19,472 bases of DNA from an uncultured bacterium (GTDB lineage: Bacteria > Verrucomicrobiota > Verrucomicrobiia > Verrucomicrobiales > DEV007): positions 1-19,472 of the forward strand of contig CAXBMO010000047.1 of assembly GCA_963977015.1 (NCBI GenBank), written 5' to 3'. The stretch's first letter is position 1, and the number at the start of each line of letters is the position of its first letter. The notes below the pieces were generated by a model. It saw only the letters and a list, made by a program, of their open reading frames with translations. It had not been told where the DNA came from and did no database searches. This document shows positions 11,846 to 19,472 of this stretch, one piece after another. Made by a program: the position numbers and the translations under genes.

Positions 11846-14800
11846 CTAACCTTTCGAAATCGCCTCATCGAGATTGAGGAGGATGTTGGCGATGTAAAAC
11901 CACGCCGCCAGTTCCGAAGGCGAACCCTTGAACTGCGGCCTCACGACTTTCGCCGGCTCGGCAATAAGCTGATTCGCGCTCTCCGGCGTCAACTCTGACA
12001 TTTTGCCCTGGTATAGCGTCTGCAAATGATGAAGCTCCGCGTTTGTGGCGGGCCGCTGCAGGGCGAGTTGGAACGCATGGTGGAGACGTGCTTGAAAGTC
12101 GGAACCCGGCGCGGTCGTCAGAACGCGGTCCGCCAATCCCAGCGCCATTTCGATATAAGCCGGATCGTTGAGCAGAGTGAGCGCCTGCAGTGGCGTGTTG
12201 GTTCGGCCACGTTTTACGGTGCACGCTCCGCGATCAGTCGCGTCAAAGCTGACGAAACTGGGGTAGGGGGCCGCCCGGCGATAGACGATGTAGATTCCGC
12301 GGCGAAAGCGATTTTCGTCCTTCGCATCAATCCATTTCGGCTCGTTGCGACCGACTTGGCGCCACATTCCCGGCGGTTGATACGGCATGACTGGTTCGCC
12401 ACCCATCCTGGTCGAGAGCAGCCCGCTTGCCGCCAAGCCATGGTCGCGAATCCCCTCTGCGCTCAGGCGGAACCGTGGGCCTCGCGCATAAAAATGATTC
12501 ATCGGGTCGACCTGCTTCAAATCGGGACGCATGCGCGAGTCCTGCCGGTAGGTTGAACTCAGCACGATCTTCCTCAGCACCTGTTTCATGTTCCAACCGC
12601 TCTCCATGAATTCCACGGCAAGCCAATCGAGCAACTCGGGATGCGTGGGAGGCTCGGATTGGGTACCAAAATCTTCGAGAGTCGCGACGATTCCGTGTCC
12701 AAAAATCTCGTTCCACCAACGATTGACGGCGACGCGTGCGACCAGTGGATTGTCCGTGCTGACTAACCATTGAGCAAAGCCGAGACGGTTCCCCGGCAGC
12801 CCCGGATCCAGCGGATGAAGGATTGCCGGTGTCGCCATCTCAACTTTCTCCGCCGGATTCAGATAATTGCCGCGTTTCATTACACGGGTCTCACGCATTT
12901 CCTCTTGTTCCACCATCACTAGGGTTGTGTCCGGTTCGATGCCGGAAAGCTTGCGCTTCGTCTCCGCGATCTGACGGTTGAGCTTGGCCAACTCCGGGTT
13001 CTCATCCAGGAAGAAATCGTCGAGGGTTTTCTTGTCCTTCGCGGAACGCTTTCCGGCTTCCGTCTTGATGATGTTGGCAATGTTTTCCGGAATGCTGATC
13101 GCGATGGGATCTCCCTTCAACACCGCCAACCGCAGTCGCCCGATCACCCGGCTGCCGCCGTAAAACTGGTCGAGTTCGATCCTCAAGCCTTCGCGGGAAT
13201 TCACGGGATGATCCGTCTTGAAGGCAATCCAGTGATCCTTGCCAAATTCCGGGTTGATCGCCCAGGCGCTGCGCGGCTGATTATCTCCGTCGATCGCCAG
13301 ATTGGGATCAAAGTAGGGCTGCGAGTAGTCGGCGACACCACCGGAGAGGCCGACTTCCTTCCCGTTTGCATCGAGCAACCGGAACTCGGTCAGCACAATG
13401 TTAGGGCGACTGCCATTGCCGCGGGCGGGGCCATTTGCCGGCAACGATTCGTCGGCGAGAACTTCGAGCCGAATCGCCCCGGCCTCCTGGAGATCGCCCT
13501 TGGCTCGAATCGTGTAGCTGGACTTGTCAGGAACCTTGCCCGTTACCAAAATCGATCCGTCATCCAACGGTTTGAATCCTTCTCCTTCGCTTCCGGCAAA
13601 GTGCTCAATCTGCAACGCCTCCCAGGATGGCTCCCGGGCGACGCGTTCCCGCAACGACTCCTCCCAAGCGTGACGGTTCTGGTTTGCGGCCTTTGCGATT
13701 GGCTTGCGCTGCGCTTCCAAAGCCGCCAACCCGGCTTGCAGCGCCTGACGTTTTGCCGCGTCATCCGAACTCATGGGAAGCTCCATTTTCGGACCGTAGA
13801 AGTCGAAACTCACTCCCTTGCCACTCGGATTACGAACCTCCACCGGTGTCTGATTGAAGTAAGCAAACATCGAGTAGTAGTCCTTCATCGTGAACGGATC
13901 ATACTTGTGGTCGTGACATTGGGCGCACTCCATCGTCGATCCGAGCCACACCGTTCCCGTCGTGTTCACGCGATCCACCACCTGGTCGACGCGATTCGCT
14001 TCCGGGTGAACGCCCGCTTCCACGTTGCAGGTCACGGTCCGGTGGAAGCCGGTCGCGATCTTTTGCTCCAACGTTGCGTTGGGGAGCAAGTCACCGGCCA
14101 GTTGCTCGATGGTGAATTGATCGTAGGGCATGTTAGCATTGAGCGCATCGATGACCCAATCGCGATAAGCCCACGAATCGCGAAGCTGGTCGGCCTGAAA
14201 GCCGTTCGAATCCGCATAGCGCGCCAGATCCAGCCAGGGACGCGCCCATTTTTCCCCAAATCGTGGCGAATCCAGAAGTCGATCGACCAGGGCTTCATAC
14301 GCCTTCTCCGAATCGGTCTCCCAAGCGGTCAGAAATGCCTGCAATTCTTCGGGAGAAGGCGGCAGCCCCGTCAAATCCAGCGAAACGCGGCGCATCAATT
14401 GATTGGGTGGGGCTTCGGCGCTTGGCGTCAGACCCAGTTCCTTCAATCGGCTGAGCACATGGCCGTCAATGGCATTGCGAGCCGGGAAATGGGGAGCTTC
14501 AGCCTTTGGAACGTCTGCCTTTTCCGGCTTCACATACGCCCAGTGTTTCGCATAGTTCGCGCCCTGTTCGATCCATCGTTTCAAGACGGTTTTTTGCGTG
14601 TCGGAAAGGGGTTTCTTCGCCTTCGGTGGCGGCATGATTTCGTCCGGATCGTCCGTCTCCACCCGAAGCCAAACTTCGCTTTCATCCGGGCGCTGGGCCA
14701 TCAGCGCAAAATAGCCGCCAAAATCCTTCTTCGCCTCCGCTTCAAGATCGAGCCGCAGATCCGCCTCTCGGGCTTCCGCATCCGGACCGTGGCAGGCGTA

Positions 14801-14911
14801 GCAATACTCACTCAGAATCGGCCGAACATCCCGATTGAAGTCCACGTTTTGGGCATGTCCTGGAGCCACAAGCAGCGCGGCGGCAAAAAGCTGGGGAAAA
14901 ACCAATCTCAT
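11846..14911 (-). CDS. PSD1 and planctomycete cytochrome c domain protein (PSCyt1, DUF1549, DUF1553)
   Basis: [43 protein letters not shown] (two CxxCH motifs); [24 protein letters not shown]. Signal peptide from ATG 14911. Confidence 0.95.
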
Positions 14912-15064
14912 CCTCCGAACACACGGGAATTCGAGGAGACATCTTACGCGACCGCAACCTCGGTAGAGTGAATCCTGCACCATTCATCGGCAAGGCGCCC
15001 GGAGAAGCTTCGGCTCCAGAAGTTGTCAAAGAATTCTACTCGGGCTCATAAAATCACCTAACCG

Positions 15065-15094
15065 TTGACGTGCCCGCTCGATGGACTCTAGAAT
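15065..15094 (+). promoter_or_regulatory. Sigma70-type promoter of the receptor/DGR-target gene
   Basis: TTGACG (15065-15070), 18-bp spacer, TAGAAT (15089-15094); each hexamer is 5/6 to consensus. ATG 15081 lies in the spacer, which favours ATG 15120 as the start. Confidence 0.65.
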
Positions 15095-15119
15095 CCCACT
15101 GCAAACGCAGGCTTGGACC

Positions 15120-18100
15120 ATGGAAGCAGATTCGCAGATCAACACTCCTACCGAACCCAAAACCCTCCGCATCTTCATCTCCTCACCGGGCGATGTGAAC
15201 GCGGAGCGGGATAAGGCGAAGCAGGTCATCGCCCAGCTTCAGAAGTGGTATGGGTCGTCGGTTAGGTTGGTGCCGGTGTTGTGGGAGGATCTGCCGTTGG
15301 AGATCAACGCCTCATTCCAGGATGGGATCGACGTGATTCTTTCCGGCGACAAAGGAATCGACATCGCCGTTTTCATCCTCTGGAGCCGGATTGGGACGCC
15401 GGTCACGATTGGCGACAAGCATTACAACTCCGGGACGGAACGCGAATTCGATCTCATGCTTCAGGCGCTCGACTCCAGCGGCGGGGAACGGCCCGATATC
15501 ATTTTCTACCGGCGGGACGACGATGATGGCTTCAAACGCAGGCTCACCGGCGAAGGTAATTCCGCGGAGATCCGGGAGATGCTCAACCAGAGTGAGCTGG
15601 CCCAATCCTTCGTCCAAGAGCATTTCTGGGATGAGCACGGCCAGAACAACCGCGCTTACCATTCCTTCCACCAGCCGGTCGAGTTCGCCGGACGGCTCAA
15701 GGTCCACCTTCAGGGTCTGATCGACAAACGCCTGGAGAATTTCGGCTTGAGCCGGGAAGCGACCTGGGCGGACGCCCCGTATCGCGGGTTGGAAACCTTT
15801 GATCTTCAACACGCCGACATCTTCTTCGGGCGTGAGCGGGAAATCGTGGAACTGGAGAGCCGACTGAGGGAACGCGAGCGAGCCGCGGACTCCGCCGAAA
15901 CGTATTCCGGACATTTGTCCGGAAATTCCCCTGGCCCGGCCTCCGGACAAATGTCCGGAGTACAGCCACCCACCGCCTTCGTCGCCGTGATCGGGGCGAG
16001 CGGCTCCGGCAAATCTTCCCTCGTCCGCGCCGGTCTCCGCGCCAACCTGACTCGGTTCAACCTGGATGAATCCATCTCCGAATGGCGTTCCATGGTCATG
16101 ATGCCCGCCCAGTCCGCAGGAAACCCGATCTCCCACCTCCTCGATTGCCTCGTCCAGCCCGGCGCATTGCCCGAACTGAAAGAGTCGGGCATCCCGCTCC
16201 CCGAAATCGCCCAGAACCTCGCCGAATCGCCCAAACCTACCGTCAACCTCACGATTAAGCCCGCGCTGTTACGCGATTCAAGGAGAGGCGACAATCCTGT
16301 CGCCCCCGGAGCCTTGGCCGATGAAGCCGGACCGACGCAGGCGACAGGATTGTCGCCTCTCCCTGCGCAAAAACTCCTCATCATCATCGACCAGTTCGAA
16401 GAACTGTTCACCGACAAACGCATCTCCGGCGAATCCCGCGACGCCTTCCTCACTACCCTCGAAGCCCTCGCCCAATCCGGCCTCTGCTGGGTCGTCATCA
16501 CGATGCGGAGCGATTTCTACCCCGTGGCCCAGAAATCGGAGATTTTTCTCCGCCTCAAGGGAGAAACCGGCCAGTTCGATCTCCTCGCCCCCGGCCCGGA
16601 AGCCCTCCGCCGCATCATCACCGAACCGGCTCGCATGGCGGGCCTCCACTTCGAGCGCCGCGCCCCGGAACTCGGCGGCCAGAGCGTCGTCGGCAAGATC
16701 CTGGAAGACGCCAAGAACCAGCCGGACATGCTCCCGCTGCTCTCCGACCTGCTCCTGGAACTCTACCAGCGCCGCACCCCGGAGAACCTGGTCACCTTCG
16801 CCGCCTACGAATCGCTCGGGGATCCCGCCAAGGGCGTCACCGGCCTGGAAGGCGCCTTGAGCACCCGCGCCGACAAGGAGTTCGACAAGCTGACCCCGGA
16901 GCAGCAAAAGACCTGCCCGGAAATCCTCCACGCCCTCGTCACCGTCGAGGCGGATGCCGACGTGCGCCGCCGCGCTAACCTCGCCGCCCTCAAGGACACC
17001 CCGCAGAAAACCGCCCTGGTCGATGCCTTCATCAACGCCCGTCTCCTCACTGCCGACGGCCCGAGCGTTTCCCTGGCCCACGAGGCACTTCTCCGAAAAT
17101 GGGACCGCGTCGCCGACTGGGTCCGCGACAACCGCCAGCACCTCCGGATCCGTTCCCGCGTCGAGCAAGCGATGCGCCGCTGGCAAAGCCGCAACCAGCA
17201 TTCCTCGCTCCTGTTGCCCCGAGGTTTGGAGTTGGCGGAGGGCCTCGGCCTGCTTCGGCAGGCACCACACCTGCTGGCCGGGAAAGAGTATGACCCGGTA
17301 CGCGACTACATAAGGCGTTCCAAACGGCGTCATTTCTGGCGACGATTTTGGCTCTGGACGGTGATCCTCGCGATAGCGGGATTCGCCCTGATCGTAGGCT
17401 TCCTCGGCCTATTTCTCGTTCTGTTGGGGATAGGTGCTCCCAGTGATATGGAATTGAAAGACTACCATGAGGAGGTTTATGAAGGGGACGTGCAGATGCC
17501 TGAGCCACCGCCCCTTCTGGATGACCCACAGGCGGCGGTAAGGCCGTTTCATCGCTTTAAAAATCGTGTCGGCATCGAAATGATGTGGTGTTGGCCTGGT
17601 ACCTTTACCATGGGCCGCCCTCGCGATGAACCTGGTCGTTTCGACGAGGAAGCGTCGCGGGATGTTCGCCTGACTCGCGGTTTTTGGATGGCGCGAACCG
17701 AGGTAACCCAGGGGCAGTGGAGCAAACTGATGGCAGAGAATCCCAGCCTCTTCCGTTTCAGCAAACGTCATCCGGTGGAGCGCGTGAGTTGGAATGGCGC
17801 GACGACGTTTTGCCGTCACCTGACCGAGTTGGAAAGATCAACGGGCACCATTCCGATCCACTGGGAATACACCCTGCCTACTGAGGCGCAGTGGGAATAC
17901 GCCTGCCGGGCGGGGAGTTCCGCTCCGTTTTCCGGGCCCAGTTTGGCAGAGATGGGGTGGTACTTACACAACGCCTTTCTTCATACTCATCCAGTGGGAT
18001 TGAAGAAGTCCAACCGCTGGGGCTTCTACGACATGCACGGCAACGTCTTTGAATGGTGTCTGGACGGCTACGGTAATTACGATCCTAAGCAAACCAAGGA

Positions 18101-18272
18101 CCCGTTTTCAGATCCTAGGCAGGCCACGAACCGGGTGCACCGGGGCGGCAGTTGGATCAACGGCGCGTCCGGCTGCCGGTCGGCGAGCCGCTACGGGAGC
18201 GGCCCGGGCAGCCGGAGCAACGGCGCCCTGGGTTTTCGCCCAGTCCTTACTCAGGTCCGCCCACAGGAATAG
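15120..18272 (+). CDS. DUF4062 (TIR-like) - nSTAND1 NTPase - TM - FGE-sulfatase (C-type lectin fold) protein; probable DGR target
   Basis: RIFISSPGDV..ER, ILWSRIGT and SGTEREF (DUF4062). PYRGLETF..FFGRE, Walker A GASGSGKSS, Walker B IIIDQFEELF, TMRSDF and AHEALLRKW (nSTAND1). TM helix about 17346-17438. GTFTMG, TEVTQGQW, LPTEAQWEYACRAG, YDMHGNVFEW and RGGSW...LGFR (FGE-sulfatase). Confidence 0.93.
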   Translation: MEADSQINTPTEPKTLRIFISSPGDVNAERDKAKQVIAQLQKWYGSSVRLVPVLWEDLPLEINASFQDGIDVILSGDKGIDIAVFILWSRIGTPVTIGDKHYNSGTEREFDLMLQALDSSGGERPDIIFYRRDDDDGFKRRLTGEGNSAEIREMLNQSELAQSFVQEHFWDEHGQNNRAYHSFHQPVEFAGRLKVHLQGLIDKRLENFGLSREATWADAPYRGLETFDLQHADIFFGREREIVELESRLRERERAADSAETYSGHLSGNSPGPASGQMSGVQPPTAFVAVIGASGSGKSSLVRAGLRANLTRFNLDESISEWRSMVMMPAQSAGNPISHLLDCLVQPGALPELKESGIPLPEIAQNLAESPKPTVNLTIKPALLRDSRRGDNPVAPGALADEAGPTQATGLSPLPAQKLLIIIDQFEELFTDKRISGESRDAFLTTLEALAQSGLCWVVITMRSDFYPVAQKSEIFLRLKGETGQFDLLAPGPEALRRIITEPARMAGLHFERRAPELGGQSVVGKILEDAKNQPDMLPLLSDLLLELYQRRTPENLVTFAAYESLGDPAKGVTGLEGALSTRADKEFDKLTPEQQKTCPEILHALVTVEADADVRRRANLAALKDTPQKTALVDAFINARLLTADGPSVSLAHEALLRKWDRVADWVRDNRQHLRIRSRVEQAMRRWQSRNQHSSLLLPRGLELAEGLGLLRQAPHLLAGKEYDPVRDYIRRSKRRHFWRRFWLWTVILAIAGFALIVGFLGLFLVLLGIGAPSDMELKDYHEEVYEGDVQMPEPPPLLDDPQAAVRPFHRFKNRVGIEMMWCWPGTFTMGRPRDEPGRFDEEASRDVRLTRGFWMARTEVTQGQWSKLMAENPSLFRFSKRHPVERVSWNGATTFCRHLTELERSTGTIPIHWEYTLPTEAQWEYACRAGSSAPFSGPSLAEMGWYLHNAFLHTHPVGLKKSNRWGFYDMHGNVFEWCLDGYGNYDPKQTKDPFSDPRQATNRVHRGGSWINGASGCRSASRYGSGPGSRSNGALGFRPVLTQVRPQE
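15902..15963. repeat. REP-doublet-like palindromic element inserted in frame in the CDS
   Basis: GTATTCCGGACATTTGTCCGGA (15902-15923) and TCCGGACAAATGTCCGGAGTAC (15942-15963) are reverse complements at 21/22 positions; each arm is itself a hairpin. Confidence 0.85.
16282..16362. repeat. Second REP-doublet-like palindromic element inserted in frame in the CDS
   Basis: GGAGAGGCGACAATCCTGTCGCC (16282-16304) and GGCGACAGGATTGTCGCCTCTCC (16340-16362) form a perfect 23-bp inverted repeat; each arm holds a GGCGACA-N4-TGTCGCC hairpin. Confidence 0.88.
18129..18245 (+). other. Putative DGR variable region (VR) with its 3' IMH-like end
   Basis: Last part of the CLec domain. The non-scaffold positions are almost all NNC codons (CAC, ATC, AAC, GGC, TCC, GGC, AGC, TAC, AGC, GGC, GGC, AGC, AGC, AAC, GGC, GCC), as expected from AAC templates. 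None of the 37 codons in 18129-18239 ends in A. An HRDC gene lies downstream. The template repeat is not in the window. Confidence 0.75.
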
Positions 18273-18279
18273 GAGCGGA

Positions 18280-18360
18280 GCCTTCCGCGCCGTAGGTCGG
18301 ACCGAGCGAGGGACGAGCGGCCCGACGGAGGAGGGCGGTCAGGCATGCGGCGTTGAAGGC
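18280..18360. other. Nested GC-rich stem-loop just after the VR (candidate DGR homing cis-element)
   Basis: Outer arms GCCTTCCGCGCCG (18280-18292) / CGGCGTTGAAGGC (18348-18360), 11/13. Inner arms GTCGGACCG (18296-18304) / CGGCCCGAC (18318-18326), 8/9, with a 13-nt purine-rich loop. No U-tract. Confidence 0.55.
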
Positions 18361-18418
18361 GGAGCGGCGCGTACTTTGCGCTTGAATTCTTGCGAAGCGG
18401 TAGAGCGTTAGGGTCATC

Positions 18419-19066
18419 ATGGCATTCCAATACTTCCAAATCCCGGCGGCGGACGGCGAGTCTGTCCAGGCCGAGTTAAACGCGTTTCTGGCCGGGAAAA
18501 AGGTCATCCGCCTGGAGCAGCACTTTGTGGCCGAAGGGGCGAGTTCCTTCTGGGCGGTCTCGGTCCAATACAGCGCAGGTTCTGGTCCGAGCGGCAACGC
18601 CGCGAAGCGGTCGGCCCCGTTCAAGAATCAGGTCGATTACCGGGAAATCCTCTCCCCGGAAGATTTCACGATTTACGACCGGCTGCGTCGCCTGCGCAAA
18701 CAGCTGGCCAAAGACGAGGGGCTGGAGGTCTCGGCAGGATGGGCCGATTGGGACGGGCGGCCAAAGGGAAGGAACGGGGCGGAAAGTCGCTTCGCCGATT
18801 TGGAGATGCGGCGCTTTTTCCGGCTGGAGGCATTGTTCGGGGCTGTGTGAGGAAGCTCATCGCCGCCCCGAGCCGCAACCTCCAGCCGAAAAAATCGCTC
18901 GCAGCCCGCCTCGCCCCAATCGTCCCACCCAGCCGCAACCTGTTCAGCAACGAGCAACTGGCCGCGATGGTGACCGAGCAGGTAAGAACCCCCCGCCGAC
19001 CTGCGCAAGATCAACGGGATCGGCGACATCAAGTTGGAGCAATACGGCGCGGAGTTTCTCGACGCC
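18419..19066 (+). pseudogene. HRDC-domain protein (DGR accessory type), disrupted by a hairpin insertion and a +1 frameshift
   Basis: Reconstructed from three pieces: MAFQYFQIP...ELNAFL...VDYREILSPEDFTIYDRLRRLRKQLAKDEGLEV (18419-18730); NLFSNEQLAAMVTEQVRTP (18937-18993); then, after an extra C in the C6 run at 18989-18994, ADLRKINGIGDIKLEQYGAEFLDA (18995-19066). Confidence 0.85.
18732..18935. mobile_element. ~204-bp MITE-like long-hairpin insertion in the HRDC gene
   Basis: Terminal arms 18732-18760 / 18906-18935 match at about 25/30. Inner arms 18807-18843 / 18865-18903. Lies exactly between two contiguous HRDC segments. No clear target-site duplication. Confidence 0.65.
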
Positions 19067-19081
19067 CGTACCCTCGGGAAA

Positions 19082-19283
19082 CGGGCTGAAAGCCCGAGAG
19101 CGCAAAGCCGGGGTCTTCAGGCCCCGGAATTCGGATCGATCAGCCTTGCGGCCTTGAAAGGTCGCCAGCAATCATGGAGGAATGGAAACCTCGCGGGCGA
19201 CCATTCAGGCCGCACTGGCATTGGTGAAACGGTGAAACCGGGGCTGAAGCCCTGGCCTTTGTGCGGAGGGGCCTTCAGCCCCG
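19082..19283. repeat. Compound inverted repeat built from REP-like GGGCTGAAAGCCC-type hairpins
   Basis: Left arm 19082-19169 (CGGGCTGAAAGCCCG, CCGGGGTCTTCAGGCCCCGG, GCGGCCTTGAAAGGTCGC) is mirrored by right arm 19193-19283 (GCGACCATTCAGGCCGC, CCGGGGCTGAAGCCCTGG, GGGGCCTTCAGCCCC). Confidence 0.75.
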
Positions 19284-19320
19284 GATCATTCGATCGTCCG
19301 GCAAAGAGCGTTCGGTCGAT

Positions 19321-19405
19321 AACCTGTTCAGTAACGAGCCATTGGCGGCGATGGTGACCCAGCAGGTGGATCGCCTGCCGCCCCGCTTCAGATCGACGGG
19401 GATCG
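19321..19405 (+). pseudogene. Second, degenerate fragment of the HRDC C-terminal half
   Basis: 19321-19367 matches 18937-18983 at 42/47 nt (NLFSNEPLAAMVTQQV); weaker similarity continues to GATCGACGGGGATCG. Confidence 0.75.
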
Positions 19406-19472
19406 ACGGGGATCGAAGGGATCGAAGGGATCGAAGGGATCGAAGGGATCGAAGGGATCGAAGGGATCGAAG
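19391..19472. repeat. Short tandem repeat running off the window end
   Basis: 2 x GATCGACGGG (19391-19410), then 6 full copies and one 8-nt partial copy of GATCGAAGG (19411-19472). Confidence 0.97.

Follow-up and report, generated by a model that had tools for sequence, protein, structure and literature searches.

A probable variable region of a diversity-generating retroelement beside the remains of its cassette in a verrucomicrobial nSTAND1 gene

In an uncultured bacterium of the Verrucomicrobiales (lineage DEV007, assembly GCA_963977015.1), a gene for an nSTAND1 NTPase very probably ends in the variable region (VR) of a diversity-generating retroelement (DGR), i.e. a segment that would have been rewritten by adenine-specific transfer from a template repeat (TR) with the help of a reverse transcriptase (RT). 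The window, meaning the whole stretch of 19,472 nt that was analysed, is an entire contig (CAXBMO010000047.1, here C47), one of 51 in the source genome (G000; 6.89 Mb, estimated to be 95% complete, smallest contig 3002 nt). Behind the gene lie the remains of a cassette, and we consider it probable that the VR is no longer rewritten and persists as a frozen relic of that decayed cassette. The gene and its predicted VR are placed as follows:

15081-18272, + strand: target gene, an intact open reading frame (ORF) of 1063 codons, in whose frame, at the 3′ end, lies the segment 18129-18245
18119-18246, + strand: predicted VR of the DGR, which aligns to positions 1-125 of the TR of a relative (genome G030, locus L024) and encloses 18129-18245

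The variable region and the templates of relatives

A preliminary description of this DNA, made from the sequence alone, had taken 18129-18245 for an adenine-mutagenised VR. Support for this proposal comes from complete cassettes in related genomes, which were reached via the ORF at 18419-18850 just behind the target gene. The first 102 residues of this ORF have homologues in 16 of the 101 family genomes searched (G000 included), and 15 loci with such a homologue were fetched and compared. Most of them contain a pair of repeats of 90-137 nt about 1.7 kb apart, and in 10 of the 15 all parts follow one another on one strand in the order target with its VR, HRDC accessory gene, RT and TR, the TR starting 1.67-1.9 kb past the start of the VR. 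Between the repeats, the ORFs encode an accessory protein of ~155 aa, in which HRDC (PF00570) is matched at E 1e-17 to 5e-19, and an RT of ~335-385 aa with an RVT_1 domain (PF00078; Pfam assignments confirmed on examples). These RTs carry an IGxLxSQ motif, which we take to be typical of DGRs, a label that no tool assigned. The accessory proteins of all relatives examined share a conserved N-terminal part of ~75 residues without a Pfam match, which corresponds to 18419-18640 of the window and precedes the HRDC domain starting at residue 80. The other five loci are without a full adjoining RT: L031 is cut by a contig end, L030 retains a C-terminal RT fragment only, and L028, L035 and L037 have none.

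Twelve VR/TR pairs from these loci were scored for the base found at their mismatches (A, or T where the pair lies on the other strand). One copy has A at 21 of 22 mismatches in L024, 22/23 in L033, 13/15 in L032, 11/14 in L025, 10/12 in L037 and 7/11 in L030, and the pairs on the opposite strand have T at 20 of 20 in L038, 15/15 in L029, 19/21 in L036, 19/23 in L026 and 16/20 in L034; the L027 pair is without bias (13/31). Such A-specific mismatches represent the TR-to-VR pattern that defines a DGR.

Since the cognate TR of the window VR is missing, the TRs of five relatives were used as stand-ins, and one codon was dropped from the VR in the alignments because it is one codon longer than these TRs. 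The VR mismatched the L024 TR at 18 of 29 template adenines and at 9 of 76 other positions, with corresponding values of 17/29 and 7/76 for L033, 15/26 and 10/79 for L026, 16/27 and 19/78 for L025, and 22/34 and 9/71 for L036. The enrichment at template adenines is significant for all five (Fisher p 4e-7 to 0.0017). Variable residues would, however, differ in any homologue, which is why a control on unrelated segments was run. The assembly holds 35 in-frame RGG...GFR segments, and the 15 of equal or +1 codon length were scored against the TR of L033, which stems from another genus. At template adenines, all 15 segments behaved similarly (16-23/27 mismatched; 16/27 in the window VR). At the other positions, only 7 of 69 were mismatched in the window VR, as compared to 9/69 in C8:56193, 15/69 in C34:41640 and 31-47/69 in the other 12 segments. 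Put differently, the non-adenine positions of the VR, synonymous ones included, match TRs from other genera at ~90%, versus 32-55% for the 12 unrelated segments. The substitutions are hence concentrated at template adenines, with heterologous TRs standing in for the cognate one, and a template-like scaffold combined with randomised template-A positions argues strongly, if indirectly, for mutagenic homing as the origin of the segment.

The relatives' TRs are rich in AAC, as in RGGSWNNNASNCRAANRNRNEPTNRNNNLGFR of L033, and judged by eye they have the layout that the preliminary description had predicted for the missing template. The closest comparison is offered by G030, which has the best match to the accessory gene and whose locus (L024) is a complete DGR behind an orthologue of the target gene. 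This orthologue is 43% identical over 677 residues, with higher identity in the C-type lectin (CLec) domain, and its VR keeps the scaffold residues and differs from the window VR at the variable ones; a segment conserved among orthologues, which would have spoken against a VR, was not what this pair displayed. Compared for the initiation of mutagenic homing, the window VR ends in CGCCCAGTCC, the form found in the VR of G030, where the TR form is CGCCCAGCCC. A search for a recipient hairpin by DNA folding of 18225-18420 returned no significant structure (z -0.36).

What appears decisive for the origin of the VR is this comparison with the relatives' TRs, and not codon composition, on which the initial proposal had drawn. 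The 39 codons of 18129-18245 translate to NRVHRGGSWINGASGCRSASRYGSGPGSRSNGALGFRPV, their third positions being C in 23, G in 12, T in three and A in one; the 16 NNC positions counted in the preliminary description would be the variable ones among the 23. The sole A-ending codon is CCA at 18240-18242, so that, as had been noted, A-ending codons are missing from the 37 of 18129-18239; most frequent are GGC (7), CGG (4), AGC (4) and AAC (3). The CLec part upstream (17560-18128) does have A-ending codons, 20 of 189, as does the remaining gene, with 122 of 1016. These figures translate into probabilities of 0.009 for 0/37 A-ending codons and 0.042 for at least 23/39 codons of the form NNC. Among the 1027 windows of 37 codons in the target gene, 13 are free of A-ending codons, seven of them at the VR site and six at 15186-15201. 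Elsewhere in the gene, NNC reaches higher values (74% at 16371) and A is equally low (11.1% at 17325). Composition was therefore rejected as proof of a VR, the bias being too mild to suffice.

The encoded protein fits this picture. Residues 233-708 form an nSTAND1 NTPase domain (Pfam PF20703, E 8.9e-91), residues 833-1055 of 1063 an FGE-sulfatase domain of the CLec type (PF03781, E 1.8e-40), and the effector-like N-terminal domain has a borderline match to DUF4062 (23.8 bits against a cut-off of 24.7). Read off the translation, the hydrophobic stretch WLWTVILAIAGFALIVGFLGLFLVLLGIG between the NTPase and FGE domains is a predicted membrane span. The target thus combines nSTAND1 with a C-terminal sensor domain, as do nSTAND1 NTPase conflict-system proteins, and its VR, at about residues 1014-1055, occupies the C-terminal end of the CLec/FGE-type fold, the location expected of a DGR VR. 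Taken together, the VR is best explained as the C-terminal end, predicted to face the ligand, of the FGE-sulfatase/CLec domain in a putatively membrane-anchored nSTAND1 NTPase. Proteins with the arrangement DUF4062-like, nSTAND1, transmembrane and FGE-sulfatase are an already known class of DGR target.

The broken cassette and the search for its missing parts

Downstream of the VR, the window contains the following features, in which the pieces of the accessory gene are placed by a profile of 154 positions built from the proteins of 16 relatives:

18290-18418, + strand: spacer between target and accessory gene, common to a truncated cassette copy on contig C8 (108/128 identical)
18419-18730, + strand: accessory pseudogene, piece 1, with the N-terminal domain and the start of HRDC (profile positions 1-102, E 3e-37)
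18731-18936, + strand: 206-nt insertion interrupting HRDC, an old copy of an element that is dispersed in the genome and resembles a miniature inverted-repeat transposable element (MITE)
18937-18990, + strand: accessory pseudogene, piece 2, out of frame with piece 1 (profile positions 104-121, E 4.6e-4)
18995-19078, + strand: accessory pseudogene, piece 3, out of frame with piece 2 (profile positions 123-150, E 2e-6)
19083-19281, + strand: second dispersed repeat, found again within a TPR gene on C15 and also on C12 and C32, occupying the place where the RT starts in relatives
19321-19408, + strand: duplicate of the accessory fragment 18937-19025 (79% identity over 90 nt; profile positions 104-121 at 19321-19374, E 0.006)
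19399-19472, no strand: microsatellite with the unit GGGATCGAA, 8.1 copies, in which the contig ends

As it stands, the ORF at 18419-18850 has no Pfam match, HRDC included, in contrast to intact relatives, which do match HRDC. Instead of the intact adjoining gene of an HRDC-type cassette (the so-called Architecture C), the window has one spread over three frames and interrupted by the 206-nt insertion. The separate frames of pieces 2 and 3 point to a frameshift near 18982-18994, and the third piece was also recovered by tblastn with residues 123-145 of the L025 accessory protein, which match at 18998-19066. The core of the insertion, 18789-18916, has 24 further matches on other contigs (74-85% identity) plus two shorter ones. 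Other copies of the element measure ~205 nt and have terminal inverted repeats of ~20 nt, and several contigs begin or end inside them; in the window, the edges of the copy have diverged and the boundaries at 18731 and 18936 are estimates placed from the accessory-gene profile. A profile of DGR RTs found nothing in the tail 18251-19472 (best E 0.48). The adjoining accessory pseudogene marks the VR as the cis target of its own cassette rather than a remote one.

The microsatellite unit GGGATCGAA is present on no other contig of the assembly, and no partner contig continuing the terminal repeat of C47 was found there. Many contigs of this genome (e.g. C1, C2, C4, C8, C11, C12, C32 and C47) terminate in microsatellites, whose units measure 5-20 nt, or in ends that resemble insertion sequences and are shared between contigs, and some pairs have an end unit in common, e.g. 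the end of C1 and the start of C38 or the end of C10 and the start of C13, making the genome unusually rich in such arrays.

A search of the whole assembly with RVT_1 yielded three RTs, all of which carry the group II intron maturase domain GIIM:

C17:929-2485, − strand: group II intron RT with RVT_1 and GIIM
C18:45250-46674, − strand: group II intron RT with RVT_1 and GIIM
C6:343330-345022, + strand: group II intron RT with RVT_1 and GIIM, with a frameshift or stop

Two of the three lie at contig ends. A more specific profile, made from an alignment (A2) of eight RTs of this DGR clade with 336 positions, detected no DGR RT in G000 either, its only matches being the three group II RTs and a fragment at C1:601714-601890 that covers positions 2-60 of 336; elsewhere, the same profile reached scores of 533 bits in G006, a genome of the same genus, and 514-518 bits in G030. 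The template is similarly elusive. The TRs of nine relatives matched only the VR-like gene ends on C47, C8 and C34 and, weakly, 60 nt at C18:89899-89958, and a scan for AAC density in search of a TR gave two matches, both unrelated. That the window lacks a template copy, as first remarked, is correct, and it extends to the other 50 contigs, none of which has an A-specific TR copy of the VR; the check proposed at the time, a whole-assembly search for a near-copy differing at its own adenines beside an RT, came back empty. Both parts of a complete autonomous DGR, a DGR RT and a TR differing almost only at its own adenines, are thus absent from the assembly.

G000 is not alone in this respect. 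An RT of the clade was found at E <=1e-60 in 12 of the 101 family genomes, among which G000 counts as one without it, and among the 16 that have the accessory gene, five are without a clade RT, namely G000, G035, G026, G053 and G091 (84-96% complete, with the locus of G091 cut by a contig end).

Fate of the variable region

In the course of events that we propose, an RT would once have copied an AAC-rich TR into cDNA, misreading adenines, and the product would have replaced the VR segment. The NNC codons would be what this misreading left behind, a step supported indirectly through the comparison with relatives. The cassette has since decayed, with a MITE-like insertion and a frameshift in the HRDC gene and with further repeats and the microsatellite behind it, and the VR would most likely be the frozen outcome of the last homing events, passed on today like any other coding sequence.

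Data from other samples agree with a static segment. The metagenome contig L039 is identical to the window at 1269 of 1269 positions over 18185-19453, broken accessory gene included, and stops in the same microsatellite; the recurrence of this tail in other datasets indicates that the insertions are not an assembly artefact. A metagenome scan with the accessory fragment returned a single locus, identical to the window. In two marine metagenome runs from 2025, contigs of X2 cover 18134-18364 and those of X4 17973-18193, and X1, the presumed source run, covers 18120-18566, all with 0 differences. Variation restricted to the first two positions of the NNC codons had been put forward as a test, but no variants are listed in 18113-18245 for four runs, whose contigs at depth 1-5 make this a weak test for rare variants; uncovered stretches and contig breaks near the VR (18120, 18134; L039 from 18185) are uninterpretable at that depth. 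Beyond 19472, the four runs provide nothing usable, one loose end of X4 merely continuing the repeat. At the protein level, the 90%-identity cluster of the target consists of one member sequence, present on two contigs, and a homologue search with the C-terminal 264 residues found no close orthologue above 50% identity besides the protein itself.

The first reading of this DNA had left three fates for the segment, namely a remote target served in trans, a frozen variant, or a gene whose TR and RT lie beyond 19472. The broken HRDC gene together with the missing RT and TR favours the second, and the idea of a remote target loses ground to the accessory pseudogene right next to the VR. Several points count against a frozen VR. 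The contig ends 1.2 kb past the VR, short of the 1.67-1.9 kb from the VR start at which relatives' TRs begin, meaning that an RT and TR past the microsatellite would be out of view. An assembly that is 95% complete and has a smallest contig of 3002 nt might have lost a short contig with RT and TR between repeats, and homing might proceed without the HRDC gene. Moreover, identical contigs are weak evidence against low-level diversification, as contigs drop rare variants and all of them perhaps represent one clone, and a second contig, 20,920 nt long, is recorded as carrying the target protein.

From these points, one can construct a complete cassette in which the VR is still rewritten in cis by an RT and TR just past 19472, whether or not the broken HRDC gene takes part. 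Its geometry fits, given that at least ~400 nt of insertions push the expected TR past 19472, both C47 and L039 stop in the microsatellite, and no contig shorter than 3002 nt was kept. Yet, neither a clade RT nor a TR-like sequence occurs on any of the 51 contigs, and the unit would call for another assembly-breaking repeat within ~3 kb beyond it. The accessory gene is spread over three frames, the expected start of the RT is taken up by a repeat element and a duplicate of a gene fragment, and all datasets covering the VR have it unchanged, which together makes a hidden cassette rather unlikely. Improbable, to a greater degree, is that a DGR at another site of the genome serves the VR in trans. 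There is precedent in a purple sulfur bacterium, where incomplete loci are described as being diversified in trans (PMC10907252), and G000 does have two more VR-like gene ends, on C8 and C34; however, its assembly contains no DGR RT or TR to do so, the VR has accessory-gene remains of its own, and the VRs of C47 and C8 are unequal in length by one codon and disagree at some third positions outside the variable ones, such that one TR cannot now serve both. Finally, the segment might have no DGR origin at all and be an ordinary FGE-sulfatase C-terminus whose NNC codons reflect GC-rich codon bias and loops rich in Gly, Ser and Asn. Its composition alone is indeed only mildly unusual, and the RGGSW...CRSA.R...LGFR scaffold is general to FGE-sulfatase proteins (5659 at E <=1e-20 among 8000 candidates scored). 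We nevertheless regard this as highly improbable in view of the close match of its non-adenine positions to TRs of other genera, the DGR accessory pseudogene directly 3′ of the gene, and the complete DGR at the orthologous G030 locus.

If the VR is frozen, one may ask whether losing the diversifier is a recurrent and possibly selected event in this family, with repeats knocking out the HRDC-RT-TR part and thereby locking the sensor of a STAND NTPase to one specificity. This is a speculative suggestion that we would not put high, on which the five of 16 accessory-gene genomes without a clade RT have a bearing, as does G000 itself with its three VR-bearing genes, a separate RT fragment and no working RT. 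Should it be true, cassette relics would record the switch from a hypervariable to a fixed receptor.

Known systems and further relics

The VR locus is an ordinary relic of a known system and involves no new mechanism. Proteins of the nSTAND1/CLec-FGE type have been described as 'antigen sensors' diversified by DGRs in Thiohalocapsa PB-PSB1 and related clades, in an account that also covers incomplete DGR loci and the way in which transposons and MITE-like elements degrade components of DGRs (PMC10907252). The locus studied here resembles those systems in having an nSTAND1 target with the VR in its C-terminal FGE/CLec domain, with the relatives' targets adjoining RT and TR, and in being an incomplete cassette degraded by MITE-like elements. 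It departs from them in that RT and TR are found nowhere in the G000 assembly, leaving no trans donor in view, and in its HRDC-type accessory gene; HRDC goes unmentioned in the main text of that paper, whose supplements may list examples (PMC10907252). The hosts differ as well, sequences of G000 recurring in runs labelled marine metagenome and the PSCyt1/PSCyt2/PSD1 gene in the window suggesting a genome of planctomycete type.

HRDC-containing DGRs are the 'Architecture C' of a survey in which 14 of 372 DGRs have HRDC genes, with 11 different architectures among them (Wu et al. 2018, PMC5758913; its supplements may list further examples). As in that architecture, the accessory gene of the relatives has HRDC (PF00570), lies between target and RT, and shares one strand with all other parts. 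Different from the 14 DGRs with their 11 architectures are the single common order in 10 of the 15 fetched loci, the relatives' extra N-terminal part of ~75 residues without a Pfam match, and the pseudogene state of the window copy.

The reference for mutagenic homing with adenine-specific TR-to-VR transfer is the DGR of Bordetella phage BPP-1 (PMC3240598), to which the present case is alike in that such transfer leads into the C-terminal end of a CLec-fold protein. In contrast, the DGR studied here has a cellular host, and a STAND NTPase takes the place of the phage tail fibre as its target. HRDC replaces Avd, and the TR of the relatives lies downstream of the RT. The parts of the BPP-1 element are mtd, avd, TR and brt.

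The most useful product of the analysis is that an orphan VR can be recognised without its own template by scoring it against the TRs of relatives. Because standard DGR finders start from an RT and a TR/VR pair, this heterologous-TR test would let scans catch orphan VRs that such finders miss. In addition, the locus adds a marine example to the known DGR-diversified STAND-NTPase sensors and exposes a cassette in which decay through small repeat elements is far advanced, as such decay had been described for a different lineage before (PMC10907252).

Two further gene ends in G000 gave the template-like scores mentioned above:

C8:54825-56600 (L002): second relic, a 493-aa TIR-like/FGE-sulfatase protein ending in a VR-like segment (non-A mismatches 9/69)
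C34:41630-41742 (L003): third FGE-sulfatase gene end, moderately template-like (non-A mismatches 15/69 against the L033 TR)

On C8, the VR-like end is followed by the same spacer as in C47 and the first ~40 accessory codons (97/118 identical), after which the sequence is unrelated. The gene bodies of C47 and C8 are only ~48% identical, and just upstream of the VR only 30 of 61 positions agree, against 108 of 128 in the spacer. After the stop codon on C34, only a short stretch resembles the tail of C8, and this gene end may be an older relic.

A piece of a different DGR cassette lineage, ~500 nt long, lies at C1:601400-602000 and contains the C-terminal part of HRDC, a palindromic spacer and the first 60 RT residues. 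A gene end precedes it, and a near-repeat of the last ~36 nt of this gene end follows beyond the fragment. The end of C15 was considered as a site of the missing RT, its terminal hairpin resembling the accessory-RT spacer of C1, but it follows a TPR gene without cassette parts and was set aside as a dispersed palindromic element.

Within the window, the neighbour of the target gene at 11846-14983 (− strand) encodes a 1045-aa PSCyt1/PSCyt2/PSD1 protein in divergent orientation, with no link to the VR seen. G006, the genome of the same genus, has a full-length clade DGR RT with two in-frame stops at C102:14547-15545 (460 bits), alongside an intact copy on C116 of that genome, and the copy with the stops seems to be a further case of decay, here in a sister genome.

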